DNA of 63,641 nucleotides, filler included, from Jimgerdemannia flammicorona (lineage: Eukaryota): the NCBI GenBank assembly GCA_003990765.1. It is 3 parts of 3 records of this genome, joined end to end, with 100 filler letters (N's around TTAATTAATTAA, not from the genome) between each part and the next. Parts side by side here need not be neighbours in the genome. Positions count along the whole stretch, not along the records: positions 21,251 to 42,399 come from RBNJ01001517.1; 2 more parts are not named here. The stretch is one strand, 5' to 3'. Within the stretch, counting starts at the first letter, position 1. The number at the start of each line of letters is the position of its first letter. Made by a program: the position numbers and the translations under genes. Positions 8,301-54,964 of the stretch are shown one piece after another. The notes below the pieces were generated by a model. That model was not told where the DNA came from and ran no database searches. It saw only the letters and a list, made by a program, of their open reading frames with translations.

Positions 8301-10312
8301 AATCTAATCAGAAGTTCTGCAAGCTCTCCATCCTCCTTCTCTTTGAATTCCTCATGATATTCCAGGCAGGCCTTCTGTTAGAGCTGCAGCCCATACCTCT
8401 CTACTCAATAGAAAATGGCCTGCTCATCAGTAGCAACTACCAGCTCAGCCTCCCTCTCTTTATCAATCTCATATCCTTCCTCCTCCAGGAAAACTGCTAG
8501 AACCTCTGCCTTCAGTGCCTCCACCACTCTCTTGCTATGCAGGATATGCATTCAATGCTCCTCACTCATCACTTGCAGGTCCACCTCTCCCAACTCCTTC
8601 ACTACAAAGTTATTCATCATCTTGCACATCCATTGAAGGTTTCTCACCTCCTTCCTCCCTGGGGTCGCTGGCCTCCCTCCATACAGTATTGAGATATCTA
8701 TCTCAGCACTTATATCCTCATTTCACTCCTTCTCTTGGACATCCACCAGTTCATCCTCACCAGCCACCACCACCTGCCCCCCCTTCACTACTTCAGAAAC
8801 TCCAAAGCATACTTACTAGGCTCCCCACAAGGGCACATCCTCTGCCACCCTACCCCTCAAAGCTGGACCTCATCTGATAAAAGGTGTAGGAGTTGGGTCA
8901 TCTTCCCAGACCTCAAAGATACCATCCACATAAGAGTCATAACCAGTTGCCTCCTTGGCTACCTCTGGCCCCTTCCCTGCATTCTCTCCTCCTTTGCTAG
9001 CTCAGATACTCTCTTTGGCTCTCCCCATGATTTCAATACTACTAGTATCCTTCCTAGCCCTGCTTTCAATCTTTGCCAATAGCTCTCTCTATCTCTTGCA
9101 TCTCTGGGACCTTTTTCACAGCTCCTTATCTATATGAATCCTCTTTCCATCCACTACTTCCAAATGCATCAACTTCATATACATCTTCCAAGCCTTTGCC
9201 CTCTACTCTACAGCCCCACTTAACTCCTCTAATGCCTCCAACAAGTCCTCTTCCTCCTCCTCACTCCCCTTCACCCTTATTACCTTATATAAGAAAGCCT
9301 CCCAAACTATCACTAAAGACCAGTTCCTAGCCTTCCCAGTAGCTTTCTTCCCTGCCAACTGAATCCTAATATCAATATCTCTTGTTCTGAACAAGGTCCC
9401 CTCCCAGACCCAGAACCCAACATCAACCACCTCTCCATACTCAGTCATAACTCTCATGACTCTCTTCCTCATCTCCACAGTGGTCACTGTGAGCACTTCT
9501 TTTATCAGCAACTACACCACCCTGGGGTCCCACCTTAAGTAATATGTCATCAGAACACACATCTCTCCAATGGTCATCCCAGCCTTCAGTACTTCCTCCA
9601 ATAACTCAGTCTTCTCAAAGCCCACCTCCACTCTTTCTAATTTCTTCAGGAACTTTATAGATGCTGCTCCAGCCACCTGTTTAGCAATTAGCCCCAGCAC
9701 TATTTTTGTCATCACTACTAAGCCCCTGAAGTACAAAGTAACCATAAACTCTGAGATTGATTTCTTAAGTAACAGGGCTACTATCAGGCCCATCACACCA
9801 TCTGCCAGATCTCCCATCCATCCAAGCCCCATTCTCTCAGCCCCACCATTAGTACTCATATCTGGATTTTTTTCCAGATTGACAGTCCTGTTATCATCAG
9901 CTATCACACTTGTCCCAACTACTACACCCCCAGCTCTACTGCCCCTATTGCCAAGGACTGCCCCTTCATAACCAGTTATCTTCCCTGTCTCCTTGCCCTT
10001 CCTCAGCCAGCCCTCTAACCCAGATGCCAGCTGTCCTCTCTTTGCCATATCTATGAAACTCACCCTTCCTATCCCCTGCCCTCCAGCCCTGCTCTCTCTC
10101 TGTCTATGGCCTTTCTCCAGCAGACCCCTCATACTTCCCCTCAAGCCAGGGCCCCTCCCCACATGCTATCAGTTGAATGTGCTAGGGCCACCCTGCCCAG
10201 TACACACCTCAGAACATATATTGGTCACTATATTACTAGTCACTTTTCTCTAAAAACTGTGTTGTGAGTACTGCCAAAAGGTTGTATAATCTGAATGTTA
10301 CCAGAGAAAGAT
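5381..10312 (-). mobile_element. L1/Tx1-like LINE (ORF1 + APE-RT ORF2), 3'-truncated, decayed
   Basis: 5' motif CTTTCTCTGGTAACATTCAG shared with other copies; ORF2 begins MNSTTNIFSLNIN (~8184); GEDDLP, LQRDPLSP, FVDD motifs; collinear with 48801-53760. Confidence 0.92.
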
Positions 10313-24006: not shown

Positions 24007-26086
24007 CTTGTTCAAGCCCACAGGTCAATGGATACAGGAATGTCTTAGATACTTAAGTCTTTGGCACCATATACCTTATCTCTATTTTGAGCTATATAGT
24101 GAGCATACATTTCCTTTTTTGGTCTTTTTTACTTAATGCTATCTAATTTAGTGCTCTATATACTATATGCTACTCTTCATGCCAAAATATATATTTATAT
24201 TTACTTTCATATATATTTGTACTCACTTTTTCTAATTATATCATATTTACTATATACTCTACTTTAATGGTACTCACTGTCAACTCCTGCTCTATATACT
24301 GATATGACCCCTCTAATATATCCAAAGGGCAACATGACCTCAGTTCTGCATCCTGTCCATTTTACTACAATATCTCTTTTATCAAACATATGCTCCACTT
24401 TTTGCAAGATAACTCTAATAATAATGATAATCCTGATATTGGTGCTCTGATTTTATATCTTAAAAATCTGCTTGAAGAAGCAACTTCTGCGTCTCCCCAA
24501 TACTCTTTGTGGCTCTCCACATAATGTCCAAGACCCCTGTTTGAGTGCAGTCTCCTACTCTAGGGCAGTCTATATCAGCAGCTCTGCTACTCCCTTCTAT
24601 TAGTTCCATTGAGGCCAGCATCATTGCACTGCAAAAACATACTTCTGCCCAGAACTGCCACATAAACAAGCTGCTCCACCTACTCCATATACATCTGGCT
24701 ATAACTATTTTTAATACCCCAGCCTTGACCCCAATAATTAAGATCTATCTTCCAGTAATCCTACAATCCCTGTTATGAATCAATCATTCATAGATCATGA
24801 CACCATATCTCTATCAGTGGCTACTACCTCTGTACCTTCTCTTTCAACAGTGATTCCTGCCTCTGTCTCCCCTGGCTCTTATGACCCACTTGGTAATCCA
24901 CAGAGTAAGTTTTTTCCTCTATCTACTGTCTCTATTACTGCCACCTCTCATACTATTATTTACAGTATCAATCTCTTTCTCAAGTATACTCATATCAACC
25001 AATACTTCTTAGCAGTGGTCATTGACAACTCCTTCTCCACCACTTCTCTTGTCTGATTTCTGAAGTATAATATCACATCTTCTGGCTCCTCTCCTGAGGC
25101 TCAATTTATTGAAACAATTGATGACTCCAGTATAAGGGTCATTCTGCAGAGACCTCTGTCTATTATTAAGAATCTCCTGGACATCCTAGCATTTCTCACT
25201 GTATTTCTCAGTTATTTCAGTATCCTCCAGAATGCTTATCCTAGGCTTACCAAATCTACTCTATTCTTTATATATGCTACTAACTTCATTCTACTCTCCA
25301 CATCATCCTCCTGGTCAATACTTCTTGACTATTACATCTTCTTTCATACTAAGCACTTAGCAGAGATTGTAAATATTAACATCTCTCCAACCTGGTATCA
25401 CTTATGGGCTTGCCACAACCCCAATTTATTTATGATGCTTAGTATATACTAATGTCTCTAAATACTGGTTACAGCTCCCAAGCCATTTAGGCTTCATGGT
25501 TCTCTATAGCCTTCTTATCTTGCCAAAGGCTTGACCTCATATACAGGGGATAGTATAGTAAACTGTCCCATATACTATACCTACAATGATATTACTAGTG
25601 ACAGATTTTCTGTAAAGAATTTTGACTGTTGGTAGAAGAACTGTTCCTATGCTCATATCTGTATACAGTGTAGCAAAGATCATTCATGATCTCACTGTTT
25701 ATATAATCTGCTTTTTTAGTCCTAGGAATTTGTCTCCACCCCACTCACCTGTATTCCTTCACCCACTCTGCTCACCTGCATTCCTCTATCCACCCCACCT
25801 ACCTGTGATCCTCTACCCACCCCCAATATATTTCTCTAATGACCAATCATACTTCTATCTGATGACACTACTCAGGCTATTCTATAGAGATTTTCACCAT
25901 TACCTACTACTTTCTACTCTACTATATTGACATACAAACTCCAACATTATCCCAATCAGTCTATCTCTCAGTCTGCCATCACTGCTATCACTCAAGGCAT
26001 ACTTAGTTTTGATGACCCTTGACACCACCTCTTAGCTCACAACCACTGTTTGGCTCTAGACCATCCAGATATCATTGCCTCTGATA

Positions 26087-26588
26087 GAGGAGGAAGAAGG
26101 CCCAGCGGGAGCCAAGGGAGTGAACCCAGAGCCAGTGTCAAAGTGAACGGAAGATATGTGAAAAGGCATGTATAAGGGGGATGAATAAAGAATGTAACCA
26201 AAAATGCATCAGCCATTTATTGCCACATAAAAACACAGTCCTTATATACAAAATATGACATTCCAAAAGAGAGGATGTGCCACAACTTGGGGCAAACTGA
26301 ATTAGGAACCACATGACCGCTGGAGATAGGTAGAGATAAAGGGGGAGCCAATCCCAGTTGCAGGATAAAAATCACAAACAATCACAAACAAAACAAATCC
26401 AAATTGAGATTAAAAAACATCTGCAGACCCCAGAGGGGTGAGCACGAGTGAGGGGTGAGGCCGAAACAGAGCAAGCTACAGCGAGCCCAAGCAAAGTGAG
26501 GGGCCGAAGGCAGCGGAGGGGAGCGGAGTAAGGCCGAGACCCCAGAGTGAGTGTGAGACTCTGGAGGGGGCAAGGATGTTTTTTAATC
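26087..26588 (-). repeat. 3' pseudo-LTR of the PLE
   Basis: ~500-bp direct repeat of 29741-30240, differing mostly by transitions. Confidence 0.93.
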
Positions 26589-26699
26589 CTCTCCAGCAGA
26601 GCCAGAGGTATCAGAAGGTGACAAAAACACAAAATGAGAGTGATGGATAAAAGAAGAAACAGAAGGAAGATGTGAATGAGCAATCAGAGGGCATTGAGA

Positions 26700-28540
26700 A
26701 AGAGATGAAAGTCCATGGCGTGAAAGAGAAGAGTGCAGACAGTATCAGGGTATTGAGCAACCCAGCGAGTATGATCAAATGGTACAATAAGAATCAGGGG
26801 TGGGAAAGAAGAGGGGGTATGGAGAGGGTAAGGGGGGAGGGAGGGAAGGAAGGGGGGATAAAGGGGAGAGAGTAGGGAAGAGTGAACAACAGATCATTCA
26901 ATAGAAGCAAGCAGATCACGAATGATAGAAATAGGGTAGGCACGACAATGGACCATGAAGTTGCCAAGAACCCGAACAGCAGACACCCAGTCAGAACAAT
27001 GGGAGCAGCATAGTGTAAGATGACAAGCCTCACCACGAATGCATTCAAGAAGAGTGCAATGAGGATGATTGGACAAGAAGTCAGGGAACTGTTGGGAATG
27101 GGGAAAATGAGAGTAAACAACAGTTCGGAAAGGAGAAAGAGAAATAGAAAGGTCCAAAAAGGGAATACTAGTCATACTGCACACCCAGGTAATAGAATGG
27201 TGGGGAGGGTAGATACCCAGAAATATACTAGAGATATCAAGACCAGCAACAGCGAAGACAATAAAGTCATCAATATATCGGTGAAAGAAGATATCCCCAG
27301 CCCAGAATGCAATGGAAAGAGGTGAAGTAATATCACATAACATATACAATTTGTGGGCCAAGCCAATAAGGTTGGTAAAGGTGGGGGCACAATTCGTTCC
27401 TATGGCAATACCAGAAGTCTGGTGGAAGGAGCCAAGGGCTGACTCAAAATAATTAGAGCCACAGATGAGGAGTGTAAGCTCAATGATGGAAGCCAGCAAA
27501 ACTGGGGAATCCAAAGGAAAAACAATGGAACCCAAGAAGCAAAGGCAATCATCGATCTCATCAAAATGAATAGCAGTATAGAAGGAGAAGTCACCAGAGG
27601 CCAAATGGGAAAAATGGTGAACAGGCATAATGGTGGAGCATAAGAGGGTGAGCTCCTGAGTATCACAAAGAATAGTATACTCAGGCCCAAGATGGTGTTG
27701 TAAGAGAGCCATCCAGGAGAGAAAGAAGTGGGATAACCACTTCAAAATCTTGATGGTAGGAGAACTGTAAGCAGCCATAATGGGATGCTAAGCCAAAGTA
27801 GGCTTGTGAACTTTAGGAAGAGTATAGAAAACTGGAAGAGAAATATCTGGGGAGGACAAAGAGTCCTGAAAGAAGTTAAAAATGGGGTTCGCAAATGGAG
27901 AGTCCGAAAGCGACCTGGCATGAGCCAGAGAAACCCGAAGAAGAGTGAGAATCTCATCCAATTCAAGAGCACTAGACTTGTAAGCTGTGGCTCAAAGGAG
28001 GGCAGAAAGGCCATCAAGATAGAGCAACTTAGAAATAAGTGCAAAACCCTGATTCTTATCAGTGACTGTGAGCAAATGCATAGGCAATTGCTTGACCAAT
28101 TTAAGTATGGTATGCATGGCACAGTCCAAAACCAAGCAAGAGCAAGTGCGTCTGGGAATGGACAGCGAACAGGCCATGTCGAGGAATACGCAGTATGAAG
28201 AGACATTGGGAGGGGGGACCCAATCACTAGGAACAAAATAGCAAGAGGACATCTCACCACGATCTTGAAAGAAAATGGCAAGGTCAAGAGCATGACGAAA
28301 ACATGTGAGATGAGCTAGATCAGTGAAGGAGAATTGTGAGGGAGTCGCAGGGAAGACAAAGCAAGGACCCAAGGATAAGGCAAAGACTTGAAGGGGAGAA
28401 AGGGGGCAGTTAGCCGAAGAAAAAGGAGGAGACAAAAGAGTTCCAAGAGAAGAGTAAACCCAAAAGTTTGGGACAAGCAACTGGGAAAGGCGAAGGGGGG
28501 ACAACATGAGGAACCACTCAGGGTACACCAGAAGCGACAA
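26700..28540 (-). pseudogene. PLE reverse transcriptase ORF with in-frame stops
   Basis: One frame: LSLGPCF, TDKNQG, FYTLPKVHK, QTSGIAIGTNCAPTFTNL, RYIDDF, IPFLDL, SNHP. Confidence 0.9.
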
Positions 28541-28593
28541 TGGAATCCAAGAAGGGATGGGGACACCAGGGGAGAATCATGCCAGGGGGAAGT

Positions 28594-29823
28594 TTAAGAG
28601 CAGGAGGCCTTCCCCTTCTCTCTGACTTTTTTTGAAGGCAGTGAGCCCAACGAACAGGAGCACACCCTGTCAGAGTGCCAGACCTTGCGGCCACAGGCTT
28701 TCATGCAGCCCTTACATTCAGGGGCACAGGTGGAGGAGGCGGAGGAGGAACTGGTGGAGGAGGCCAAAGGCAAGCGAGCAGCCAAGGGGGCAGCAGCATA
28801 AGGAACACCACCATGAGGACAGACAGACTTGGCTGGGTGCCAGTAGGTATGGTGGAGGCAACTGGAGCAGACAGCACAAGGCCAGGCCCTGACAGGGTGA
28901 GAACCAAGTTGGCGGCCATGCTTGGAGGCAGGGGGAATGGAGGAAGAAGCCTTAGTGGGGGAGGGGGACTGGGAAGAGGCCAATGAAGCCTGATTGGGCT
29001 TAGCGGGGGTCTTGGCGGAGGTCTTGGAGGGGGTCTTGGTAGCAGCAGTGGTGAAGGAATGAACCTCGGCATGAGCAGCAGCATAAGCCTTGGCACGAAT
29101 GGCCTCAGAGACTGAAACCTTGGGGGAGGTAGGCAGGGGAGCAGTGGCAGCAGTGCGAGCAGTGGCAGCAGCATGTGATGTCTCCTGCTTGTAAAGGCAA
29201 GCAACAAAAGAGGTGCCAGCAAGGAGAAAATGATGCACAGCATCGATATCAGTGGCAACAGAAGGAATGTCTTGGATGGCAAAGCCACAGAAGGGGGCAG
29301 CATCCAAAAGATGAGAGGAGGCGAAGGCCATGAAGGCGGCATAGGCACAGTGGAAGGAAGCAGAGGCAGTGGCGGTGGAAGCAGCGGTGGCATCAGTAGC
29401 AGCAAGCTTGGTGGCAGCAGTAGTGGCATGAACCTCTTCAGAGAGGGCTTGGTGATGGGCCTCAGGGAGAACAGAGTAGTGGACAGCAGGCAGAGCAATG
29501 ACATCAACATTATGGTGGAGACGAGCCTCCTTGGTGGAGAGGGCAAGAACTGACTGGAATTGGGAGAGGAGCAGACAACCAGAGAGATGAAGGTCCAAGG
29601 GGAGGGAAAGGATGGCAGACAAGACGTATGGCTCAAATGAGACAGTGGCAGGGGTGAAGGCAGGGGGTGGGGGAGGAGGAAGCTCCTCATCCATGAGCTC
29701 GTCAACAAGGATGGAGGTCCTGAGGGCAGGCAGTACAGCAGAGGAGGAAGAAGGCCCAGCAGGAGTCAAGGGAGTGAACCCAGAGCCAGTGTCAAAGTGA
29801 ATGAAAGATATGTAGAAAGGCAT
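28594..29823 (-). CDS. PLE ORF1 or N-terminal region (Ala/Pro/Ser-rich, CxxC-x4-H-x3-H motif, basic tail)
   Basis: 409-aa open frame starting in the pLTR; the inverted pLTR copy keeps ATG TCT TCC ATT CAC, so the ancestral start is probably ~29811. Confidence 0.65.
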   Translation of the reverse strand: MPFYISFIHFDTGSGFTPLTPAGPSSSSAVLPALRTSILVDELMDEELPPPPPPAFTPATVSFEPYVLSAILSLPLDLHLSGCLLLSQFQSVLALSTKEARLHHNVDVIALPAVHYSVLPEAHHQALSEEVHATTAATKLAATDATAASTATASASFHCAYAAFMAFASSHLLDAAPFCGFAIQDIPSVATDIDAVHHFLLAGTSFVACLYKQETSHAAATARTAATAPLPTSPKVSVSEAIRAKAYAAAHAEVHSFTTAATKTPSKTSAKTPAKPNQASLASSQSPSPTKASSSIPPASKHGRQLGSHPVRAWPCAVCSSCLHHTYWHPAKSVCPHGGVPYAAAPLAARLPLASSTSSSSASSTCAPECKGCMKACGRKVWHSDRVCSCSLGSLPSKKVREKGKASCS

Positions 29824-30514
29824 ATATAAGAGGAATGAACAAAGAACATAACTGAAAATGCATCAGCCATTTATTGCTACATAAAAACACAGTCCTTATA
29901 TACAAAATATGATATCCCAAAAGGGAGGATGCACCACAACTCAGGGTGAACCAAATTAGGAACCACATGACTGCCGGAGATAGGCGGAGATAAAGGGGGA
30001 GCCAATTCCAGTTGCAGGATAAAAATCACAAACAAATACACAAAACAAATCCAAATCGAGATTAAAAAACATCTACAGACCCTGGAGGGGTGAGCACAAG
30101 TGAGGGGTGAGGCTGAAATGGAGCAAGCTGCAGTGAGCCCAAGTGAAGCGAGGGGCCGAAGGCAGCAGAGGGGAGCAGAGTAAGGCTGAGACCCTGGAGT
30201 GAGCATGAGACCCTGGAGGGGGCAAGGATGTTTTTTAATCTTGATTTGGATTTGTTTTGTTTGTATTTATTTGTGATTTTTATCCTGTCACTGGAATTGG
30301 CTCCCCCCGAGTTATGGCACATCCTCCCTTTTAGGATGTCATATTTTGTATATAAGGACCACGTTTTTACGTAGCAATAAATGGCTGATGCATTTTCAGT
30401 TACATTCTTTGTTTGTCCCCCTTATACATATATGCCTTTCCACATGTCTTCCATTCACTTTGATACTGGCTCTGGGTTCACTCCCTTGGCTCCTGCTGGG
30501 CCTTCTTCCTCCTC
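29741..30514. repeat. 5' pseudo-LTR plus inverted extension, a palindrome centred on hairpin 30060-30240
   Basis: 30241-30514 is the reverse complement of the pLTR tail, with one internal deletion of ~50 bp. Confidence 0.92.
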
Positions 30515-30649
30515 CATTGCATGCCTTCCAACTTTGCACTATATATATCTCTATCTCTGATAATGGTATTGCTGATGCTTTGTCCTGCTCTGACCTTCCT
30601 TACTTCCACCATCTTACTCTCTATGTACAGATGCACCTGATAATGATTG

Positions 30650-31630
30650 GTATCATCTGCATGCTACATTTCTATCCATTATTACCTTCTTTCTGTAATT
30701 TAGACTGGCAAAATCTATATACTGCTCATATTCTTCAGAATAATATAGCTTTCTCCAATTCTGTATCCTTTATAGTAACTACAGTTCCAGCAGCACTCTA
30801 CCTACATCTGAGCTGGTGCTAATATATTGGGTCTGTTATCTTATCTTATAGCACCTGCAACCCACTACTATCAAGTAGTATCTCTTAGTCATTTAGTCTC
30901 TTCACATCAACTCCAGTCTTGCTGACCCTTTCATAGGTCTTCAATAGCTGCCCTGAGTTATGTACAGTGTCAAATAATAGCTGGGCATACAGCCAGTCCA
31001 TTCTAAGCTCTCAATTACTATCAGTATCTTATGATAGCTCCTGGCCCTTCTATATCTATAAGACCATAATATCCTCAATCTGGTGGTAGTGATGTCTCTG
31101 GCCTATATCAGGTTCCTAAGGTCAGGTAAGTTTACATGGGATTGTCTGTTTGATTCCTTCTTCCAGATTTCTCAGGGCTATATAGTCTATCACCCTCATA
31201 TTATAGACCCTATGCATGTCACTCTAACTCTACCTGTCTCAAAAATAAACTCTTTCTGATAGGACTGCACCCTGTTTATCATCAAAATGGTACCAAATAC
31301 ACCATGTATCATATCTCTACTTCATCTTCTATTCCTTACTACCTCCAACCCTACAGGTATCCCTCTATTCATATACTCTATAAGCTGCCCCTTCTTCTGC
31401 TCCTACCTTATTTATTATCTCCAGTCTCTACTTCTATATATTGGACTCAATCTATCTCTCTATACTGGCCACAGTTTTTAGATTAACACTATGTCAAATA
31501 CTGCTATAGTGGGTTTATTAGACTATGAAATTCAAACACTTGGGTACTGGTCAAGTATGGCATTTTAAGAGTATATTCATATATCTATATCTCACATCTG
31601 TAATCTTCAGGCCTCCCTCACTTAGCTGTT
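30650..31630 (+). pseudogene. Tyrosine recombinase of the Ngaro element
   Basis: FLRSGKF (R), LPVSKIN (K), YTGHSF* (HxxR), IQTLGYWSSMAF*EYI (W, Y), with stops. Confidence 0.85.
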
Positions 31631-32405
31631 TCTCTCAGCTACTGACATTTCTAACTGCATATCCATGATATCAATTAATTGGTAAAGTATATCTAAGCCT
31701 ATGATACTAGCTATTATTGCAGAGCACTGTATACTCTCTATATCATTCTGGTATCATATTGCTCATAGTACCAATCTATCTTATCTATCTATACTTCTCT
31801 ACTTTCCTTTAGATATTGATCCTTCCTTATTCTCACTTCCCCAACATCAGATCACACAATACTTATTTGGGTCAGGTTTTCTACTATATATTTCATTTTT
31901 TTTCACCTAAATATATATTCCTTAAATCAAATATCTTTCTCAGGATTCTTTTTTCCCCCTTCAAACTCATCATACATATCTCTTGACATTATTACAAAAG
32001 ATTGAATAAGGGGACTCATTTAAGTCCACAGGACAATGGATACAAGAATGTCTTAGACACTTAGGTCTTTAGTACTAGATATCTTATTTCTATTTTGGGC
32101 TACATAGTGGGCATCTATTTCCTTTTTTGGTCTTCTTCACTTAATGCTATCTAATTCAGCACTCTATATACTATATGCTACTCTTTATACTATAATATAC
32201 ATTTACATTCACTTTTATGTATATTTGTACTCACTTTTTCTACTACTCTCCCTCTCTATATATATATATAAGAGGTCAGTTTTTCTACTATATATTTCTT
32301 TTCTTTTTATCCAAATACATATTCCTTAAATTAAAAATCTTTCTTTGAGTTCTTTTTTCCTCCTTCAAACTCATCATACCTCTTGACATTATTATAAAAT
32401 ATTGA

Positions 32406-41874: not shown

Positions 41875-42399
41875 TAGTACTATGCTATATTTGAGAATTA
41901 AATTTAGATATTATAATCTAATATATATTTATTCTTTGATTTTAATTTTATTTCAGATTATATATTATAATATATATTTTTAATATATAATATTTTTAAA
42001 TATAATATTATTTCAAATTTAATAGTTTACTTTGCAATTTTAAAATCTTTTTTATATTTTGAAAATACATATAATTAATATATCTAATTTTAAATTATAT
42101 AGGTTAATATTTACATTAAATATAATATAAAATAAATTTCCAATATGTTATGTTATATTTATTTTATAAGTATATCTAACATTTCTGTTAACAGTTATCT
42201 GATCTTAAAGATATAAGAAAATTCTCTAACTATAAAAAATTTTTACTTATATAGTTAAAAGATGACTTATAGAAAAATAAATTATAACTTAATTATAATA
42301 TAGCTAGCAAACTTATATAAATATGTAATCTAAATCTTTTAGTTAATAAATTTTAAATTAAAATGGATAAAGTAAAAATTATGTATTTTTTTTTTTTTT
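41875..42399. mobile_element. Extremely AT-rich decayed repeat, possibly a hAT end
   Basis: Abrupt compositional switch starting TAGTACT, like the terminus at 58861. Confidence 0.3.
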
Positions 42400-42499
42400 N
42401 NNNNNNNNNNNNNNNNNNNNNNNNNNNNNNNNNNNNNNNNNNNTTAATTAATTAANNNNNNNNNNNNNNNNNNNNNNNNNNNNNNNNNNNNNNNNNNNN
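42400..42499. other. Assembly gap linker
   Basis: N44-TTAATTAATTAA-N44. Confidence 0.98.
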
Positions 42500-42626
42500 A
42501 AAAAAAAACTCCCACCTTCCAATTTACCCCAGTATTATTATTGGAATAGTAACTTGATATATTAATATATAATTATGCCATTTTATCAGTTTTACATCAT
42601 TTATTAGTAATATATGAAATATATAT

Positions 42627-45600
42627 AACACTTTTCTTTAATAATATTTAGGTTATATAAACTTTAAGCAACTCTTTTGATATCATTTTTGGAGATAAGA
42701 TATTAACAACATGGTAACTATTGAGTATTCTGAGATGTATGCTGGGCAGGGTGGCCCTAGTGTGTTCAACTGATAGTATGTAGAGTGGAGCCATAACTTG
42801 GGGGAAAGTATAAGGGGCTTATTGGCAGGAGGACATAGAAGGAGAGAGGGCAGCATTAGAGGACAAGAGACTAAGAGGATAAGTTTCACAGATAAGGTAG
42901 AGAGAGGTCAGCTGACAGTAATGACTGAGCTAGAGGGCTGGCTGAGGAAGGGCAAGGAGACAGCAGAGGCTGTAGGTTCTGAGAGAGCAGCCTATGAAAG
43001 TAAGAGCAGTAGGGCTGAGAGAGTAGTAGCTGAGGAGAGTAGGACTGCTGATAGTGGGGGGACTACTAATCTAAAAAAAAAATCCAGATGTGACAGTTGA
43101 TGGTAGATTTGGACAGAGGGGGGCATGAGGCCCAGAGTTCTGAGATAGTATGATGGGACTAGTGGTAGTACTGTTACTTAGAAAATTGAGGTCTAAATCT
43201 ATTATCACATTGTACTTCCAAGACTTAGTAGTTATAGTAAGAATAATTCTGGGGCTTCTGGCTCAGGAAGTGAAGGGGACCACTTCAGTGAAGTTTTTGA
43301 AGAGACAGAAGGAGTGGAGGTTGGCTTCAAGCAGGAGGAAGTGCTGTTGAAGATGATAGAGAAGAGAGTGGTAGTAGGGGGGGTGGCAATCCTCATAATA
43401 TAGTGCTTGCACTGAGATCCTCAAGTGGTACAGTTGATGGTACTGGATATACCAACCATATCAAAGGAAATAGCCAGGAGGTTGATTGTGAAGGCTATCA
43501 AGAAGTATGAGGAGATTGTAGATATTGGATTTTGGATCTGGGAGGGCACTGAATTCAGGACTAAAGATATGAATATCAGGGTGTAGCTAGTGGGTAAGGA
43601 GAATATGGGGAAGATGAGAAACTGGCTAGCAGTTCTAAAGTAGAGCCCTGTGGAATGCAAGGTCTTGCAGATGAAGGAGATGCTGGAAGAAGAAAAGAAC
43701 TTATTGAAGATATTGAAGGACCTGGCTGGAGCTGTGGAGAGGAGGCAACTGACCTAGAAGGAGTATGAGACCAAGACAGTTTTCAAGATTATCAATGACA
43801 AGAGGGTGTAGCTGGATCAGGCTGCCTGAGAGCAGGCATAGGGGAGGCAGATTCAGAAGGAGCTATTGGTAAAGTTGGGAGGGGGGATGGCAGAGGGGAC
43901 CACAGCTGAAGATACTGATTTGTGAGCAAGTATTTGGATGGGAGAGGAGGGGGTGACTCCAGAGGTGCCCCAGAGAGCAGGAGGTAGTGTTGGATTGAGT
44001 GTGGTCATGGAAGATATAAAGATAATCAAGAGGGAGCATCCTCAGTATAGAGTGCTAGATGGGGCTACTGGTGAGAAGGAACTACAGAATGTACTGGAGG
44101 AGGATTGAGATAAGTTGGTGAGATGGAATACTTAGGGAGGATGGGTAGAGGGGGTGAAGAGTGTGGCTAAGAGAGTTGCAGAGACTGTGGATAAAGAGAA
44201 GTAGCTGTGGAAAACACTAGAGAATGTAGTGGTAGAAGAGCTGGGAGAGGACTTTTGGGTACTAAGCAAGAGACACTGGGGTGAAATTCTACATAGTGAG
44301 AAGGTGCTAAGAAAAATTCATGATGAGATAATGGTAGCATTGCTGGAGGCTGAGGCCTATCAAATAGATGATAACAGAGAGACAGTGCTCAGAACAATTG
44401 TGAATAATCATATAGCATATATGTGGAGTCTGAGGAAGAGACTGAAAAAGTAGCAGGTTGTATATAAGGAGTACCAGTCAGAGATAGAGGCTGTGAATGG
44501 GGTAGACTGTCAGGAGACCTTAGTGGCACTGAATGCTCAGCAGAGAGAGGCAGATGAGATTGCAGCAGAGAGGAACTTAGATCTTATGGGTGATGAGATG
44601 AGTATGAAATTATAGGATAAGCACTTCCTTTCAAAAAACATTATTCAATATGAACAGTGCAACTAGAATCTTCTCTTTGAATATCAATGGACTAAGGGGT
44701 GTGATGAGATGATGAAATATCTTTAGCTGACTAAAGAGGCTAGATGCAGATCTTTTTTTATTATAGGATGTAGGTTATGATGTAGACTTGGACTTACTGA
44801 ACTGAATGAAGGAATGGAGTGGTATAGTAGTATGGCAGGGTCAGGTGGGCATTCTAGTCAGGAAGGGGGTGAGAGACATTGGGGATATTGGATATTAGGA
44901 GAGTTGATTGGTGTGAAGAGTGTGAAAGAGGCTGGGTTAGAGTCTCCTAATTGTAGAATCTTGCTATTGCTCAGCAGAAAGGTGGGAGCAAGTGGATTAG
45001 GTCCAGAGTTTGTGAGAGGCTGGTGTTCTGACAAATGTAGGGATTGACTATCTGGGAGATAACTTTAACATGATATGCAATAATAGGTTAGACAGGACTA
45101 ATAGAGAGAGGGGTATAGTAGGAAGGAGTGGAGAGATGGAGAACTAAGAGAAGATTGAGAGACTGAGTTCTTTGGTAGATACCAGGTAACTTGGATGAGT
45201 AGATCATAGGGTCTATACTCACTAGATGATAGAACTGAGATTCTGAATAGACTGGGTATTGATAGCTGAGTACTGGGGTGTAGATGTCTGGAGTGTGATT
45301 GAGACAGTCTGGTGCCCTTGATCAGACCACTGGGAGTTGCTGGGCAGAGTGAGATTTGGGGGTAGTGGAGATGAGTCTGGACATTAGTACCTGAATACCA
45401 CATTACTGGAGGATAGTATCTTGTGGAGAGAATGGGTGATAGATGTTAGTACTAAGGTTGTGGGCTGGAGGGCACAAGGGGAGATTGGGGATCATTAGCA
45501 GTAGTTGAAATCTGATACTCAGTAGTTTTGGAGTGAGGTGAGGAGAGGAAGGGGGGCCTAGCAGAGACAGTATGCTAAGTAGGCTTCATAGAGACTGGTG

Positions 45601-48385
45601 ACTCTACTGGAGAGATAGACTGGATCATTGGAGGACTGCAGGATAGGAGACTAGAGGATTCAGTGGATCCAGCAGGAGGTGGAAGAACTGAAGGGGCTGC
45701 TTAGATAGGAGGAGAAATTGCAGATGAAAGAGCTAGTTGCTCAGATGATAGGGTATAGAGGAGGGAGAGCAGCCTACTAAATATTTGTCAAGGCTACTAT
45801 AGGCAAGAAGGACAAGGCAGTAATGGGAAAGAGTGTTGAATAAGGTAGAGGATATAGTGACTGGGATACTGGAGATCTTGGGTCTATTGAAGTCTTACTA
45901 GAGATGGCTGTGGAGTAAGAAGAAAGGGAGAGAAGATGCCCTAAGCATCAAAAGACTACTAGAGGATTGGCACCTAGATTTGGTAGCAGGTCTGGGTGAA
46001 CTTGGAGCCCTGATAAGTAGAGAGGAGATATATCAAGTCTTGGTGATGATGAGTATAGAGATAGTCTCTAGAGAGAATGGATTGCCTTGGGATTTTTAGA
46101 AGAAGATGGCTGATGTTGAGATTGTATTAAAAGAGATAGTGTAGATATATAAAAAGGTTATCATCTCAGAGTTCTGAATTGGAGAACAGTATCTGGGGCT
46201 TGTTGCTCTGTTGTATAAAGACAAGGAGAGAAGAGAGGATTGGAAGAACTAGAGACCAATCATGCTTCTGGATATGGATCACAAGTTGGTGATAAAGATT
46301 TTAGTAGTCAGGCTATAAGGGGTGGCTCAGCAGGTGCTAGGAGTAGAGTAGAGGGGCTTTATTGGGAGCTAGTTGATTCAAGATAGAATGGCATAGGTCT
46401 ATGGTATTATTGAGAGTACTCATGCAGCCAGGGTTAATAGTTTCCTATTCTTTCTGGATTAAGAGAAGGTATATAACAGAGTTTGGCATAGAGTATTGAA
46501 GCAAATAGAGATTTCTCCAGAGTTTAGGAGATCTTTGATTTGTCTATTAGAGGAGAGTTAGGTAGCTATTATAATAAACAGGTACAGGAGAGAGTTCTTC
46601 CCCCTGGGCAGAGGAGTGCTGCAAGGAGACCCACTGTCACTGATTCTCTATACTCTCTTATTAGAGCCCTTGTTGGACAGAATTCAGTGCAGAGTTGAGG
46701 GTTTGAACATTTTAAGAGTGAACTGGAAGATTGGGATCTTTGCTAATAATATAATAGTCAGGCTAGGCTCTGTAGAGGATGTGGCAGTACTGAAGAGTAC
46801 AGTGAAATAGTATGAGAGATGTTTGGGTGCTAGGCTCAATTGACATAAGTGTGAGACTCTGGCCCTAGATAGAGGGATAGTTGGGGGTAATGTGATCAGT
46901 ATAGTAGTCTTAGCTGATAAAGCAGTCTGCTACTTGGAGATTTATTTTTCAATATATGGTTTCCTACTGCCTTGTGGCTGGTGGGAGCAGTAGCTTCTAG
47001 CTTAGAGAAATGTTCTTTTGGGGTAGAGAGGCTGGTATACATATCTCTCTGGTAGGGAGAGTGATGGTACTGAATGTATACTGGCTGCTGAAGCTATAGT
47101 ATATTGAATATTACTTGGAATTTCCAGTATAGGTGGTTAAGAGATTGTTGAAGATAGTTAGGTCATGGATTTGAGTGGAATGGTGGAGTCAGATCAGCTG
47201 GAAAGTATTGATATTATCTGTTGACAGAGATGAACTGAGCCTGGTGGACTTCACCAAGTATCTGCATTGCTTGAGAGTATAGTGGCTGAAGTAAGCAAGT
47301 GAATTGTGAGGTCGAGAGTAGGTACCTCTTATATAGAGAGTATGGGAAGTTCAGTGCTTCCCCCAGGACATAACTGGTGACCTGCTCTCTCTGGTGGCTC
47401 TTGAAGGAAGTCAGAAGATACACTATAGAGAATTCTGGTAGAGAGTGGTGGATAGTATCCACTGTATTAGTCTCCAGTAGAGGGGAGATAAGAGAGAGGA
47501 GAAATGGGGACCACAGATGTAGAGATAGGACTGCCTACTATTAGGAGATATACTGGTGGAGAATTTTTAGCTAGAAGATAGCATAGAATATCTATGTATG
47601 AGAGTATGGGAGGGATTTGTGGTCAGAGGCATAGCAGGGGGTAGGGATCAGTGAGAAGTGGGACTGGAATAGTATCTGATCTTAGTGCAAGCAGGTGGTA
47701 AGATAGCTCTCTTCCAAGTTCTGAGTAGTATGGTAATAGATGCTGAGATATAATATAATACTGAACTATTGGTCAGGTCACTTGATAGAAGGGGGGGATT
47801 TGGAGTGTGAGGAGTATCTGGATGTTAGACAGATGAGAGGTATAGTATAGACCTCTGAGTATTAGCTTAGAGAGTGCAAGGTTCTGGGTAATTTCTGAAG
47901 AGCCATTGAGGACTAGCTGGAGTTGTGACCTTTGAGGAGAGGGGAGGGTAGAAGGTAGGATATGTAATCTCTAGCATAAGTTGGTAGAAAGAGTTGGAGA
48001 TAAGTGATTGACTTTAGGGTAGGCTCTAGCTATTTGGATTAGGCTTGTCAGACATTGGCTCTATGTATTTGAGAATGGTTAATGATTAGTGGTTGGGGTG
48101 AGGATTGTGTGATGAGAGTGGCTTCTGCTGGATATCTTGAATGATTAGTGGTGGGGGTGGGAACTGAGAGGGGAAATCTATTGGAGATTTGTAGAATGTA
48201 TTTACAAGAAGAGTAGGGGGAGAGTTTGAGTCACTGGAGAGTTGGTAACTCTCTGAAGGGATAGAGAGAGTGGGGGGATGAGGGGTCTATATGAGATTAG
48301 GTGATGGGTGGACCTGTTCTTTGTATTGATATAATATAGATTGGATGGTAATCAGTAATAAAAGCAGAAGTCTAAGTGACTATAA
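42627..48385 (+). mobile_element. Full-length L1/Tx1-like LINE, decayed, inserted in the copia LTR
   Basis: 5' AACACTTTTCTTT; ORF2 MNSATRIFSLNINGL (44650); LQGDPLS; 3' end AAGTGACTAT followed by an A/TA run. Confidence 0.92.
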
Positions 48386-48800
48386 ATATATATATATATA
48401 TATAATATAAAATATACAACCTATTCAACTTTAATAAAATTGCCTCTCTTTTTACAATAAAGGTTATGAACTCCACTAGCACTAAGTGGCTAGAGTAAAT
48501 ATATATCTCTTTAATATATACTATACTAGAAATATCAGATGACTAGCCTAGTAATATAGATATACTAATTACAAGTATTTCTACTAATAGATACAGGAAA
48601 TACAGTTTCAGTTATAAGTATAAATATAGCCAAGAGATCTATCTCAATCTTCAATAGAAATAATTATGTGATCTGGGTATTCTATATAATGAATCTTCTT
48701 AATAAATATAGCTTGATAGAGTATATGAAGCTATAAGTGCTAATTTAAGATTATGATACTACAAATGATTATCAAGCATTATATAAGATCATATTTATAC

Positions 48801-51800
48801 AACACTCTTTCTCTAGTAACATTTAGGTTATACAACCTTTTAGCAATACTCACAATATAGTTTTTGAAGAGAAGAGTCTAGTAATATAGTAACTAACATA
48901 CATTCTGAGGTGTATACTGGGCAGGGTGGCCCTAGTATATTTAGCTGGTAGTATGTGGAGAGAGGCCCTAGCTTGGGGGGGAGTATGAGGGGTCTGCTGG
49001 CAGGAGGTCATAGAAGGAGAGAGAGCAGGGTTAGAGAACAGGGGACAGGGAGAGCAAGTTTTGCAAATATGGAAAAGGAGGGTGACTGGTATCTGGGCTG
49101 GAGGGCTGGCTGAGAAAGGGTAAGAAGACAGTACAGATGACCAAGCATAAGGGTGTGGCCCTTGGTAGTAGGAGCAGTGGAGCTGAAGATATAATAGCTG
49201 GGATAAGTATGATGGCTAATAGCAGTAGAACTGCCAATCTAAAAAAAAATCCAGATATAACTGCTGATAGGAGGGCTGAGAGGATGGGGCTTGGACAGAT
49301 GGGAGACCTGGCAGATAGTGTAACAGGCCTGGCAGTGACCCTATTACTCAAGAAGTCAATCTCAGAATTTGCTATTACTTTGTGCTTCAGGGGCTTAGCA
49401 GTAATGGTGAAAATGGTGCTAGGGCTGATTGTTAAGCAAGTGACTGAAGCTGCATCTGTGAAGTTTCTGAAGGGGCTAAAAGGAGTGAAGGTTGGCTTTG
49501 AGGAGGCTGGGCCATTGGAGGAAGCACTGAAGGCTGGACTGAAGGTTAGAGAGGTATGTGTTCTGATAGTGTGCTGCTTGAGGTAGGACCCCAGGGTGGT
49601 ACAATTGCTGGTAAAAGGGGTGTCCACAGTGACTGCTGAGGAGACAAAGAGGAGAGTTGAGGAAGTCATGGTCAAGTATAGAGAGGTGGTTGATGTTGGG
49701 TTCTGGGTCTGGGAGGGGACCTCATTTCAGACTAGAAATGTTGATATTAGAATTCAGTTAGCAGGGAAGGAGGCTACTGAGAAGGCTAGAGACTGGCCTT
49801 TAGTTATGGTCTGAGGGGCTTTCTTGTACAAGATGACAAGGGTGAAGGGGAGTGAGGAGGAGGAAGAGAATCTGTTGGAGGTATTGGAGGAGCTGAGCAG
49901 TACTGTAGAGCAGAGGGCAAAGGCTTAGAAGGTGTATATCAAGTCAATATATTTGGAAGTAGTGAATGGAAAGAGGATTTAAATGAATAAGGGGCTATGG
50001 GAAAGGTCTCAAGAACATAGAAGGCAGAGAGAGCTGTTGGTAAATCTGGAAAAAAGAGTAAAGAAAGATACTAGTGATATTGAAATCATAGGGGGAGCCA
50101 AGGAGAGTGTCTGGGCTAGCAATGATAGAGAGAATACAGTGAAGGGGCCAGATGTGAGAAAGGAGGCAAAGAGATGTGACCCTTATGCAGATGATATCTT
50201 TGAGGTCTGGGAGCCTTCTCTAATTCCTATGTCTCTTATTAGATGAGGTCCAGCTTCAAGAGGTAGAGTGGTGGAGGATGTATCTATGTGGAGAGCCCAG
50301 TAAGTATACTTTAGAGTCCCTGAGGTAGCAAAGAGGGGGCAGGTGGTGGCAGTGAGCAAGGATAAACTGGTGGATGTTCAAGAGGAGGAGTAGAATGAGG
50401 CTACAAGTATAAGGGCTGATATCTTAATACTGGATGGAGGGTGGCCAGTGACTCCCAGGGAGAAGGAGGTGGGAAATCTGCTGTAGATGTGCAAGATGAT
50501 GAATAACTTTGCAATAGAGGAGTTGGGGGAGGTAGACCTGTGAGTAATGAGTGACAAGTATTAGGTATGTGTTCTGTATAGTGAGAGTGTGGTGGAGGCA
50601 TTAAAGGCAGAGATTCTTGTAATTTTTCTGGAGGAGGAAGGATATGAGGTTGATAAGGAGAGGGAGGCTGGGCTGGCAGTTACTGCTGGTGAGAGGGCTG
50701 CTTTCTGTTGGGCAGAGCAGTATAGATTACAGCTCTGGCAGGAGGTCTGCCTAGAATATTATGAGGAATTCGAGGAGAAGGAGGATGGGGAGCTCACTGA
50801 ACTTCTGGTTGAACTAGAGACTAAGAGGACTAAAGAGAAGGAGGAAGCTGCAGAATATATACTAGTCCTGGATCAGAAGGAGATGAATATAGGGCAGTAG
50901 AGGACATGCTTGCTATTATATATTATTCCTTATGAATAGTATAACCAACATTTTTTCTTTGAATATAAATGGGTTATGGGGTTTGTTTTATTGATAGAAC
51001 ATTTTTGCTTAGCTGAAGGTATTGGAGGCTGATTTCTTTCTTTTGTAGAATGTCAGATATAAGAATGATTTGAATAAACTGAAATGGACAAGGAAATGGA
51101 GAGGGGAGGCAGTTTGGCAGAATGAGGTTGGGATTCTGGTCAGGAGGGGCAGAGGGGAGGTACAAGATATATAGAACTGGAGAGACAGACTGGTTTGGGG
51201 AGAGTGGATTCACACTAGTCAAGAACTGGTTACAGTTGGATCCTGCTACTATTCTATAGTGCAGAGTGAGTGTGTAGAGTGAGTGAAGAGTCTCCAGGAG
51301 GGAGAGACTCTGGCAGAGACTAGAGTAGATGTGCTTGGCAGAGACTTTAATATGGTCAGAGATGTACTGTTGGATAGAACTAATGGAGGGTGGGGGGCAG
51401 AGAGTAATAGTAGAGGCTTGGAGATATGAGAGGAAGTAAAAAGGCTAAGTGCTTTGATGAATACTGGTAGGGGATTTTGGAGTGATAGAAGAGTATATAC
51501 ACATTGGGTGAGTAGACTGGAGACAAAGATAGACTGGATGCTGACAGCAGACTACTGGGGTCTGGATGTTTGGAGATCACTAGAGGCTGAATGGTATCTA
51601 TGGTCTGATTATTGGAGATTGCTGGGACAGGGTCATTTTGGGGGGAGTGGGGATAGCTGGGATATTGGTACCTCAACTACTCCCTGTTAGACAATAGGGT
51701 ACTATAGGATAAGTGGGCTAAGGATATTCAGCAGAGAGTGGAGGCATGGATACAGGAAGGTGCATAGGTGGATAAGGCTGAAAGAGGCTGCTAGGGTCTA

Positions 51801-54644
51801 TTAGAGAGAGGTGGGTATGGAGGCTGATAGATAGAGGAGGAAGAAGAGGTTGTGGACCTCTGCTAGATTGATGAGGCTGTTGAAAGATTGGGCAGATCTG
51901 TTGGCCCTGGAGAGGGTGGAGGATTGGAGATTGTTATGGGTGAAAAAGGAGGTTGTGAAGTTACAACAGGTATTGCAGAAGGAGAAGGAAGTGCAGATGC
52001 AGAGTTTGGAAGCATGTCTACATTGGCAGGGGCTGGAGGAAGGAGAGAGGTCCTCTAAGTTTCTCACAAGAGCCCTTCAGATAAGGAGGATTCAGTGGAG
52101 GTGAGAGGGGGTTCTGGATTCTGAGAGACTATTGGTGTATGGTATACATGACATTCTCAGATCATTAAAGAAGAGGTGGAGTGGCTTGTGGAGTGAGAAG
52201 GAGGGTGGGGCTGAGGCTGCCACCATTGATCTTGCCTTGAAGGATTAGTACCCACTATAGGTGGAAGGGCTAGGCAACCTGGTGATACTGGTGAAGGAGG
52301 AGGAGATTCACCAAGTTCTTGCTACAACTATACTAGATACAGCACCAGGGGAGGATGGCCTGCCCTGGGATTTCTGGAAGAAGATGGTAGACATTCCTGG
52401 TATACTGAGAGAGTTGAGGGCACTATGTGACTCAGTACTATAGTCTGGAAGATTGATAGGTGAGCAGGATTTAGGGCTAATAATGCTGCTATATAAGAAC
52501 AAGAGTAGGAGATAGGACTGGAAGAACTGGAGGCCAATCATGCTACTGGATATAGACAGGAAGTTGATTACTAAGATGGTGGTAGTAAGGCTGCAGAAGG
52601 TAGCCCAACAGATCTTGGGGGTGGAGCAGTGGGGATTTGTCAGGGGCTAACTCATTTGGGATAGTATGGCTTGGATATATAGTATTATTGAAGGGGTGTG
52701 AGTCTGTGGACTGGATGGGCACCTGGTCTTCTTGGATCAGAAGAAGGCATATGACTATGTTCAGAGGGTCTGGTTGGCAAAGGTACTAGATAGGATTAGC
52801 ATCCCTCAACAGTTATAAGTAACAATGGTCAGCCTACTGAAAGGGAGCAGAGCTGTACTCATGTGTAATAGATATCAAGAGATGGCTTTTTCTCTGGGTA
52901 GGAATGTTCCCCAGGGAGACCTACTGTCTCCTATCTTATATATACTCTCCTTGGAGCCATTAATAGATAGGATTTGGTAGAAGATAGGAGGGCTTTCAGT
53001 ATTTAGCATGGAGTGGAAAGTTGGTGTCTTTGTAGATAATATGGTAGTCAGTCTGGGCTTAATTACTAATGTTGAGAAATTAAAAAAGACTATGAAGTGG
53101 TATGAGATATACTCTGGGGCTAAACTCAATTAGTACAAGTATGAAACAATATAATGGCCTAGTGGGGGGGGATGTTATTGGAACAATTGTCCCTGCTGGA
53201 GAGGTGGTGAGGTACTTGGGCATTTATCTTTCAGTGTATGGGTCAGTCCTTCCAAAACTCTGATAGGAGCAGTGGGTTGTTGTCTGAGGGGAGGCCCTAT
53301 GGAGCTGGAAAGGCTGCCACTTATCTCTGGCAGAGTATGTTTCCATCTTGAATACTTACTGGCTATCAAAGCTATGGTATTTGGCTTATTATCTGGACTT
53401 CTCAGCCTAAGTGATAAAGAGACTACTGAAATTAGCCAAGGGGTAGATCTGGGCTGAGAGGAGAAGTCAGATTAGTTGGGAGATCTTATCCTTACTGGTG
53501 ATTAGAGGGGGTCTCAGGCTGGTTGACTTCCCAAAGAGATTGTACTATCTGAGAGCATGGTGGCTAAAGAGAGCTACTGAGCTAAGGGGCAGTAGCTGGG
53601 TTCCTCTGTTGAAGAAGGTCTGGGAGATAAAGTCCTCACTAAGAGGCTCCACAGAAGATCTTCTATCCTTGGTTAGACTTCAGAATAATAGATATATACA
53701 GTTTAAGGACTTCTGGTAGAGAGTCACCAATGGGGTATACTGTATTGATATTTGCTAGTAGAGAGATGAGAGAGAAAGACCTTGGGGCCCAGTGATGTGG
53801 TGATGGGACTAAGTGTTGCTGGGGGGCATCCCTCTCATTGACTTTGATATTGGTGATGGGGTTGAGTGCCAGAGAGAGCTGGGGCAGGATCTGTGGCCCA
53901 GCAGATAGTAGTTAGTGAGTATCAGAAAAGAGTGGAACTGGAATAGTATCTGGACCTGGAGTGCTGAGGTTTGGTAGTGACTGCTACTGAAGTATTAGGT
54001 GGTCTGATGACACATGTTGAGGAGAAATGTCATGCTCAACTTTTGCTCTAGCCATCTGGTGAAAGGGAGAAATTTTGACTGTTAGGAGTACTATAATATT
54101 AGATAGGAAGGAGGCTTTGTGCAGATACCTGAATATTGACTGGGAGAGTACAAAGTGCTCAATAACTTCTAGATAGTAGTTGGGAAGAAGTTGGGTATCA
54201 TGTGGAGGAGGAATGGTATGGGGGATTGGTGGGAGAATTTGCAGGATAGATTGGTGGGAGGGGTTGGGAAGGAGTGGCTTACTTTAGAGTAGGTTATAGC
54301 TATATGGGTGGTTGGCAGGTCACTAGTTATTTGTGTTTGAGGATGGGAGATATCTGGGTTTAGAGGCAAAACTATTGTGATGGGAAGGATTGATAGAGGA
54401 TATTTTAATGGGCTAGTGGTATGGTTGGAGACTATAGAGTGGTAGGTGATAACATTTGGTAGATAGAATATATAGACAGAGTGGGGGAAGGGTTGGAGTC
54501 ATGGGAGATAGAGTGATTTTTAAGTATGAAGAGATTGAGGGAGGGAGCTCCCCTATGGGAATTGGATAGTGGGAGGAGATAATGTAATTTTATATATAGA
54601 CTGATAATAAATGGCAAAGTCCAAGTGACTATAAAAAAAAAAAA
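48801..54644 (+). mobile_element. Full-length L1/Tx1-like LINE, decayed, with poly(A) tail and ~15-bp TSD
   Basis: ORF1; ORF2 (APGEDGLP, LDQKKAYD, QGDLLSP); CCAAGTGACTAT-A12; TSD agatcatatttatac (48786-48800) / agattatatttatat (54646-54660). Confidence 0.94.
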
Positions 54645-54964
54645 GAGATTATATTTATATTGTCAAATTCTCAAATAAAGCTCATAATATATATTATAAC
54701 AGCTCATGAGATATAAGAAACTCTATACAATCATCATATGTAAGTTTCTATATCAAATCAATTCTATCTAAAATCTTAGCTATTCAATATGAATAAATAT
54801 ATTAGTTGTATTGATAATCTGATAAATCAAGTGAATTTTCTCAATATATCTGCAGATTGTATTAGTAATAAAAAAAAGATTATAACACTCACAAGAGGAC
54901 TTTCAGATATATATAATATTGTTATTGTAGCTATATATAAGAGCAGTAGACTTATGAACTATAT

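Follow-up and report, generated by a model that had tools for sequence, protein, structure and literature searches.

Coincidence of a 14-bp inverted repeat with the inverted junction of a decayed retroelement assigned to the Penelope-like elements in Jimgerdemannia flammicorona

How does a retroelement come to end in an inverted copy of its own terminal repeat, and what sets the point at which the direct copy turns into the inverted one? For Penelope-like elements (PLEs) an inverted 5'-truncated copy next to the upstream pseudo-LTR (pLTR) is described as typical and the mechanism of its formation as undefined (PMC8557442, which like PMC3846280 is cited throughout in excerpt). A retroelement that raises this question was analyzed in a 63,641-nucleotide stretch of DNA from Jimgerdemannia flammicorona, the whole of which is called the window here.

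Architecture and family assignment of the element

The features of the element are listed in Table 1. The two pLTRs are direct repeats with 88.9% identity over 503 columns. At the plus-strand end of each direct repeat, i.e. at the 5' edge of the pLTR, lies a 181-bp module which had already been delimited by a reading made from the sequence alone (the sequence-only reading). These boundaries hold, and 161 of the 181 positions are identical in the two copies. Both modules are closed by the perfect 14-bp stem GATTAAAAAACATC/GATGTTTTTTAATC. Right after position 30240 the sequence had been described as the reverse complement of the pLTR tail, and repeat search and alignment agree on this point. The 14 bases of the stem arm at 30227-30240 are common to the direct and the inverted copies. 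The inverted arm had been said to end at the base matching 26087; it does so within 1-3 bases, positions 30514-30517 being the match to 26084-26087. Both outer ends of the element share the terminus AT(A/G)GAGGAGG, where the internal repeat has GCAGAGGAGG. Three boundaries fall together at 26588/30240, namely the limit of the pLTR homology, the outer stem edge and the point of inversion. The same stem is found in the internal pLTR, where no inverted arm adjoins it.

Table 1. Features of the retroelement and their positions in the window
Feature	Position	Strand	Remarks
Retroelement, old, dead copy	26086-30517	genes on minus strand	single decayed copy
pLTR1, 3' pseudo-LTR in sense orientation	26086-26588	-	tail 26086-26407, module 26408-26588
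pLTR2, 5' pseudo-LTR in sense orientation	29740-30240	-	tail 29740-30059, module 30060-30240
Module copy 1	26408-26588	.	stem arms 26408-26421 and 26575-26588; 153-nt interior
Module copy 2	30060-30240	.	stem arms 30060-30073 and 30227-30240
Inverted 5'-truncated copy of the pLTR tail	30241-30517	+	reverse complement of tail
Decayed ORF region with frameshifts and stops	26690-29862	-	from the ORF list and tblastn of relatives
N-terminal ORF part	28594-29862	-	open frame extends into pLTR2
Middle ORF part with DKN.G motif	27992-28576	-	
RT core ORF, 297 aa, YIDD	26894-27787	-	

The inverted arm lacks 51 nt that are found in both direct tails, and it has gained a 4-nt insertion. The gap (30297-30310 versus 26294-26344) lies between G-runs, CTCGGGG ... 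AAAGGGGGAG. These 51 nt could have been lost by slippage at insertion or later within the long palindrome.

All long open frames lie on the minus strand; the plus strand is antisense to them, as the sequence-only reading had stated. The tail of pLTR2 holds the beginning of the open frame, so that the ORF starts within the pLTR. The element terminus itself falls in the pLTR tail; it is situated inside the open frame, upstream of the methionine of MDEEL. The coding (minus) strand of 26086-30240 consists of 66-71% pyrimidines, which is unusual for a protein-coding retroelement. The corresponding plus strand of the element exhibits a GC skew of +0.26 to +0.30 and an AT skew of +0.38 to +0.39, and L, S, P and F are abundant in the element ORFs.

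The dinucleotide AT flanks the element at both outer ends (26084-26085 and 30516-30517) and is absent from the internal junction. It may be a target duplication of 2 bp, or it may have arisen by chance alone (1 in 16). A long target duplication was not found, the only similarity between the two flanks being a 224-bp direct repeat (24011-24234 and 32019-32242, 86% identical) approximately 1.9 kb to the left and 1.5 kb to the right of the element. This repeat may be an older element that was hit by the PLE insertion, or a dispersed repeat. The pyrimidine-rich left flank contains a 27-bp tandem unit in three copies (25735-25820).

Blastn with the element and tblastn with the RT, the N-terminal part and the relative proteins revealed no further copies of the PLE in the window. 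Long blocks of strong GC skew at 6001-10000 (-0.41 to -0.49) and 42001-56000 (+0.33 to +0.51) are not copies of the PLE according to blastn and tblastn. A metagenome scan for both stem arms separated by a gap of 140-165 gave 0 matches. The sole metagenome locus matching an invariant 20-mer of the tail (L001) was rejected as a chance match, only those 20 bases being shared.

The family of the element was determined from its RT core ORF. An exhaustive HMMER search revealed 375 relatives at E<=1e-3, nine of them at E<=1e-10, the best with an E-value of 1.2e-70 and 45% identity. Pfam scans of 35 relatives found RVT_1 at E<=0.001 in 27 proteins (above the Pfam cut-off in 20) and additionally a C-terminal GIY-YIG domain in two proteins (above the cut-off in one); the remaining eight gave no Pfam match. 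Within a family alignment of 30 members 24 match RVT_1 and four match GIY-YIG. The family consensus contains the motifs DKNLG, KIHK..GRPIV, G.AMGT.CAP..AN and RYIDD, which we take to be hallmarks of PLEs. The fusion of an RT with a GIY-YIG domain is a signature of Penelope-like elements. A DKG motif is also named among the PLE features in the cited part of PMC8557442. When the PDB was searched with the family profile, 18 entries were matched at E<=1, under the names of reverse transcriptases, maturases or defence-associated RTs; TERT was found among them with E-values of 0.016-0.021. The single RT ORF gave 1 irrelevant PDB match (E 9.2), and a word-index protein search with this ORF found nothing at E<=0.001 among proteins of lengths 163-520. 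Pfam analysis of six minus-strand ORFs at E<=1 yielded only 3 irrelevant matches (E 0.12-0.19) and left the RT ORF without a match. Hypothetical eukaryotic clusters were retrieved from the protein atlas. The taxa recorded for them are few, most being rotifer, chlorophyte, streptophyte or cnidarian, and some of the clusters carry RVT_1 and HTH_animal; they serve as a lead to relatives only.

Five relatives (P0001, P0003, P0004, P0021 and P0070) were aligned by tblastn to the minus strand at approximately 28471-26690. The GIY-YIG part of P0021 (aa 683-766) gave no tblastn match, and the aligned part comprises aa 36-547 only. GIY-YIG is likewise absent from the Pfam matches of the six minus-strand ORFs at E<=1; the copy is decayed and the domain may have been lost by decay. 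A search of 25500-31000 against Rfam at E<=10 gave five weak matches (three C/D-box snoRNA families, a plastid intron and NRON), none of which is a ribozyme or lies inside the module. The consensus of the hammerhead core, CTGANGA...GAAA, is absent from both strands, a pattern which minimal or decayed motifs could escape. No telomeric repeat was seen by eye at either element end.

By RT kinship and architecture we assign the element to the PLEs. The architecture comprises pLTRs with the ORF start inside and an inverted 5'-truncated copy adjoining the upstream pLTR. Two features usual in canonical PLEs, the endonuclease and the hammerhead, appear to be missing, at least at a detectable level, from this decayed copy. 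DIRS, Ngaro and LTR retrotransposons were considered as alternatives and dismissed in view of RT relatives of the RT/GIY-YIG kind and of an ORF start that lies within the repeat.

The 14-bp stem and the fold of the module

The 14-bp stem is real and exceeds chance. When the 3654-nt unit was shuffled 300 times with its dinucleotide content preserved, no perfect local inverted repeat reached 14 nt (0 of 300), the longest measuring 13 nt. The sequence-only reading was right in pointing to a perfect closing stem in both modules. Since the stem is also found in the internal pLTR, it is part of the element and of its template and not a by-product of the junction. The arms are free of CpG; given a rate of 0.040 per site outside CpG, about one change is expected in their 28 positions. 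Consequently, the perfect conservation of the arms is as expected.

The 153-nt interior of the module had been described as an alternation of short GC stems and opposed GA steps. The stems cccc/gggg, ggggt/acccc and ggcc/ggcc are indeed present in the MFE structure of copy 1 and in a rod alignment of this copy, for which we used our own scoring scheme with a single rod anchored at the stem and which is not a thermodynamic model. Collinear Watson-Crick stems in the interior scored a z of 3.4 for copy 1 (reached by 0 of 200 shuffles) and 3.0 for copy 2 (1 of 200). The interior scores were reached by 5 and 19 of 429 natural windows of the element body, respectively, which have a lower GC content than the module, a bias favouring the latter. 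The interior contains the direct repeats AGACCCCAGAG, GAGGGGTGAG and AGTGAGGGG, each present twice, and no inverted repeats of at least 8 nt. The rod signal may come in part from these repeated units, each of which combines a run of C with a run of G; direct repeats such as the two copies of AGACCCCAGAG are perhaps what gives rise to the modest surplus of collinear stems. The nearest-neighbour DNA energy of the interior is ordinary on the plus strand (z -0.28 and +0.48) and on the minus strand (z -0.94 and +0.86), and the RNA folding z-scores lie between -2.2 and +0.3. The plus strand of 30060-30240 also contains five runs of four or five G, 13-44 nt apart; this spacing is too wide for a canonical G-quadruplex motif.

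The collinear GC stems thus stood up to the comparison with shuffled sequences, but the opposed G.A steps did not. When a bonus for tandem G.A pairs was included in the score, z went from 3.4 to 3.2 in copy 1 (0 of 200 shuffles) and from 3.0 to 1.5 in copy 2 (20 of 200). The bonus raised the real score by 16.5 and 9.5 for copies 1 and 2, respectively, and the shuffle means by about 16. The opposed G.A steps show no excess over base composition, and a G.A zipper is not discernible. G.A pairing had moreover been regarded as special to the plus strand, i.e. to the first-strand cDNA. The plus strand of the module folds 4-5 kcal/mol below the minus strand. Shuffled plus strands also fold about 3 kcal/mol below shuffled minus strands, and the energy gap is compositional because the shuffles show a similar one. 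Restoring the decayed CpGs in a script did not improve the fold (z +0.94 for the DNA plus strand).

The central claim of the sequence-only reading was that a hairpin with G.A mismatches explains the inverted repeat. With the native interior the stem is predicted to close with P 0.98. Of 120 constructs with shuffled interiors, 119 are predicted to close with P >=0.9. The stem thus closes equally well around a shuffled interior and does not depend on G.A pairing, and the claim has to be abandoned in this form. Accepting it would mean that the arms are held together, and the fold-back is driven, by a cDNA-strand-specific rod in which sheared G.A pairs zip up short GC stems. The interior is 71% purine on the plus strand, opposed GA steps do occur in the rod alignment and the plus strand has the lower fold energy, all of which speak for such a rod. 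Nevertheless we regard it as the least probable of all readings, with hardly any chance of being correct, given that z does not rise with the G.A bonus, the strand difference follows composition, closure is indifferent to the interior and CpG restoration does not help.

No compensatory changes were found between the two module copies, both of which are dead and have decayed neutrally since insertion, so that their differences speak neither for nor against a structure in the active element. Among the 51 rod pairs of copy 1, 11 differ in copy 2, each on one side only (seven to G.T and four to A.C). Paired columns contain 11 of the 20 variable sites, as compared to 102 of all 181 columns, so there is no depletion. 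Of these 20 sites 17 are CpG-type transitions. The complete pLTRs show 54 differences, 36 of the CpG type and 18 others, with CA versus TG at several sites, a pattern which suggests cytosine methylation of repeats in J. flammicorona.

Routes to the inverted junction

The number of events at the locus was judged from the divergence of the three tails. These are equidistant: over 282 columns 15, 11 and 14 differences are private to one tail each, and the tails are 89.7-91.1% identical in pairs, as would fit a single insertion event. A separate 5'-truncated insertion that happened to land beside the pLTR, a later rearrangement, or a fold-back introduced during assembly would do without a single event. 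The argument for such an origin is the 51-nt deletion together with the 4-nt insertion, which occur in the inverted arm and in neither direct tail. Such an origin is unlikely in view of a junction that lies at the stem edge to the base with a 14-nt overlap, and of the star-like divergence. Its technical variant, the assembly fold-back, is excluded because the arms are about 10% diverged.

We consider, with moderate confidence, that the locus represents the standard PLE insertion architecture, i.e. a partial tandem with two pLTRs plus an inverted 5'-truncated copy, laid down in one old event. In this reading the switch from direct to inverted would have been set by ordinary Watson-Crick pairing of the element-borne 14-nt inverted repeat. 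The stem is present in the template and the direct copy ends at the stem edge; the direct cDNA would consequently have ended where its 3' end could pair.

Among the routes that include such pairing we rank first, at middling probability, two cDNAs which were primed from both target ends and annealed by their 14-nt complement. Both 3'-OH ends of a broken target would prime reverse transcription at the same start site of the RNA template. This would be why the same terminus faces outwards at 26086 and at 30517. The long cDNA (plus strand, 26086 to 30240) would end with GATGTTTTTTAATC-3' and the short cDNA (30517 down to approximately 30227) would carry GATTAAAAAACATC. The two cDNAs would then anneal over 14 nt, and each would be extended on the other. 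No G.A pairing would be required of the purine-rich interior. The two-ended route assumes a double-strand break as the source of the two 3'-OH ends, no endonuclease having been detected, and the short cDNA would have to end at the 14-mer or be trimmed to it. L1 twin priming also produces an inverted 5' segment via a second target 3'-OH and a microhomology join. In L1 the source of the inverted segment is internal to the RNA, and the segment is joined at a site other than an element-encoded repeat, unlike at the locus described here.

Priming from both target strands has been described for a PLE. Purified PAc protein (Poseidon of Anolis carolinensis) cuts both strands of the target and extends both, and the start site does not apparently differ from one strand to the other (2024, PMC11167929). 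Both strands are extended from one RT start site within the ORF start, which leads to identical outward ends as observed here (PMC11167929). In contrast to the J. flammicorona element, for which neither was found, PAc requires its own endonuclease and has a hammerhead ribozyme, and the PAc paper does not address inverted junctions (PMC11167929). The evidence for two-strand priming would thus be carried over from an endonuclease-bearing vertebrate PLE to an element of a different kind.

The structure of the locus alone fits intermolecular annealing and intramolecular snap-back alike. In the latter case the cDNA would stop or stall at 30240, its last 14 nt would fold onto 30060-30073 by the Watson-Crick stem alone, and the tail would be copied back to 29741. 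Self-priming of the cDNA by fold-back had been proposed by the sequence-only reading, and part of it is borne out: the inversion lies at the edge of the element's own stem, and the direct copy reaches to the outermost base of the stem and no further, which is what a 3' end engaged in pairing would need. For a cDNA with its 3' end at this edge, folding of single-stranded molecules of 181, 501 and 1001 nt predicts pairing with the opposite arm at P 0.95-0.98. Hairpin priming, the fold-back at a cDNA 3' end, is known as an in vitro property of retroviral RTs, where it primes second-strand synthesis. To our knowledge it has not been demonstrated for PLEs, and a search of the literature on Penelope-like second-strand synthesis and snap-back found no proposal of a cDNA hairpin. 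What does not agree with the fold-back is the extent of the inverted arm. Extension would be expected along the 4.1-kb cDNA, yet the arm goes no further than the internal position that corresponds to the element's 3' terminus. Such a stop would result from two independently primed cDNAs and argues against a simple fold-back. Snap-back would need an added assumption, e.g. a template-jump junction at which the first RNA is still hybridised. Furthermore, no closer match of the inverted arm is seen with the adjacent tail, its supposed template, than with the distant tail (91.1% versus 89.7%). We therefore place snap-back second, as a possible but clearly less probable route than the annealing of two cDNAs.

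Self-priming has also been discussed at the level of RNA. In Adineta vaga Penelope elements the authors infer self-priming from palindromes at the inverted pLTR junctions, and according to the cited excerpt these palindromes and the head-to-head arrangements fit self-priming on an antisense template (PMC3846280). The published version favours antisense RNA as the template, whereas the sequence-only reading uses cDNA (PMC3846280, in the part cited). The 14-nt arms of the J. flammicorona element read the same on both strands, so that an antisense RNA could fold as well. This RNA-level route encounters the same stopping problem as the cDNA snap-back, and for the present locus we hold it to be very improbable.

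Going beyond the annealing of two cDNAs as such, the 181-nt stem-loop could be a dedicated cis-acting device, whose arms, after being copied into cDNA, would let the 3' end of that cDNA act as primer either on its own strand or on another cDNA, the inverted tail supplying a promoter. We offer this only tentatively and consider it rather doubtful. If it were true, an endonuclease-less PLE would complete its second strand and its integration at a chromosome break without a second nick. The inverted tail would then put a promoter upstream of the pLTR-ORF-pLTR unit, and the layout would be self-propagating. Read in sense orientation, 30241-30300 has an A-rich TATA-like stretch, GGATAAAAATCAC, which lies approximately 44 nt upstream of the edge of the stem. 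The entire pLTR-ORF-pLTR unit could be under the control of an antisense promoter located in the tail; A-richness, however, is general in this region.

Comparison with other Penelope-like elements

The closest parallels to the locus come from Adineta vaga. In the part of PMC3846280 cited, Pen2a_Av, Pen2 and Pen3a consist, as here, of two direct pLTRs and an adjoining inverted pLTR. Inverted and direct pLTR overlap by 15 bp in Pen2a_Av, as compared to 14 bp in the J. flammicorona element, and other A. vaga families have palindromes of 18 bp and 38 bp at the 5' end of the pLTR (PMC3846280, same excerpt). Further common features are an inverted pLTR that is shorter than the full one, a palindrome at the pLTR 5' end and an ORF start inside the pLTR. 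The differences concern the endonuclease, the host and the form of the palindrome: the A. vaga elements encode a GIY-YIG endonuclease, and none was detected in the copy from the fungus; their palindromes of 18 and 38 bp are contiguous, and the arms described here are two 14-nt stretches 153 nt apart (PMC3846280, as excerpted).

A PLE-type RT without an endonuclease domain is shared with the Athena and Coprina clades, the latter being described as taxonomically diverse (PMC8557442, in the part cited). According to the same excerpt, Athena and Coprina elements are attached to telomeres and carry reverse-complement telomeric repeats and hammerhead motifs, whereas neither a telomeric repeat nor a hammerhead was found in the J. 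flammicorona element (PMC8557442). Endonuclease-deficient PLEs of fungi and protists are said, in the cited passage of PMC3846280, to lack the pLTR/inverted organisation. In contrast to these elements, the organisation is present here.

As for the sequence-only reading as a whole, its observation is mostly confirmed, apart from the G.A component, which is not above chance. Its interpretation is partly supported and is neither specific nor new: layout and self-priming idea have already been published in general form (PMC3846280, in excerpt). The formation of the tandem and inverted ends of PLEs is still called undefined (PMC8557442, in the part cited). For this question the value of the locus is that of a clean example from one decayed copy, and not of a new mechanism. 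The end of the pLTR, the outer edge of the 14-nt repeat and the inversion point agree to the base, and the element in question has no endonuclease that could be detected. This coincidence lends support to the view that the junction would be fixed when the 3' end of the cDNA pairs, and it suggests that the inverted layout of PLEs may not need the GIY-YIG enzyme.
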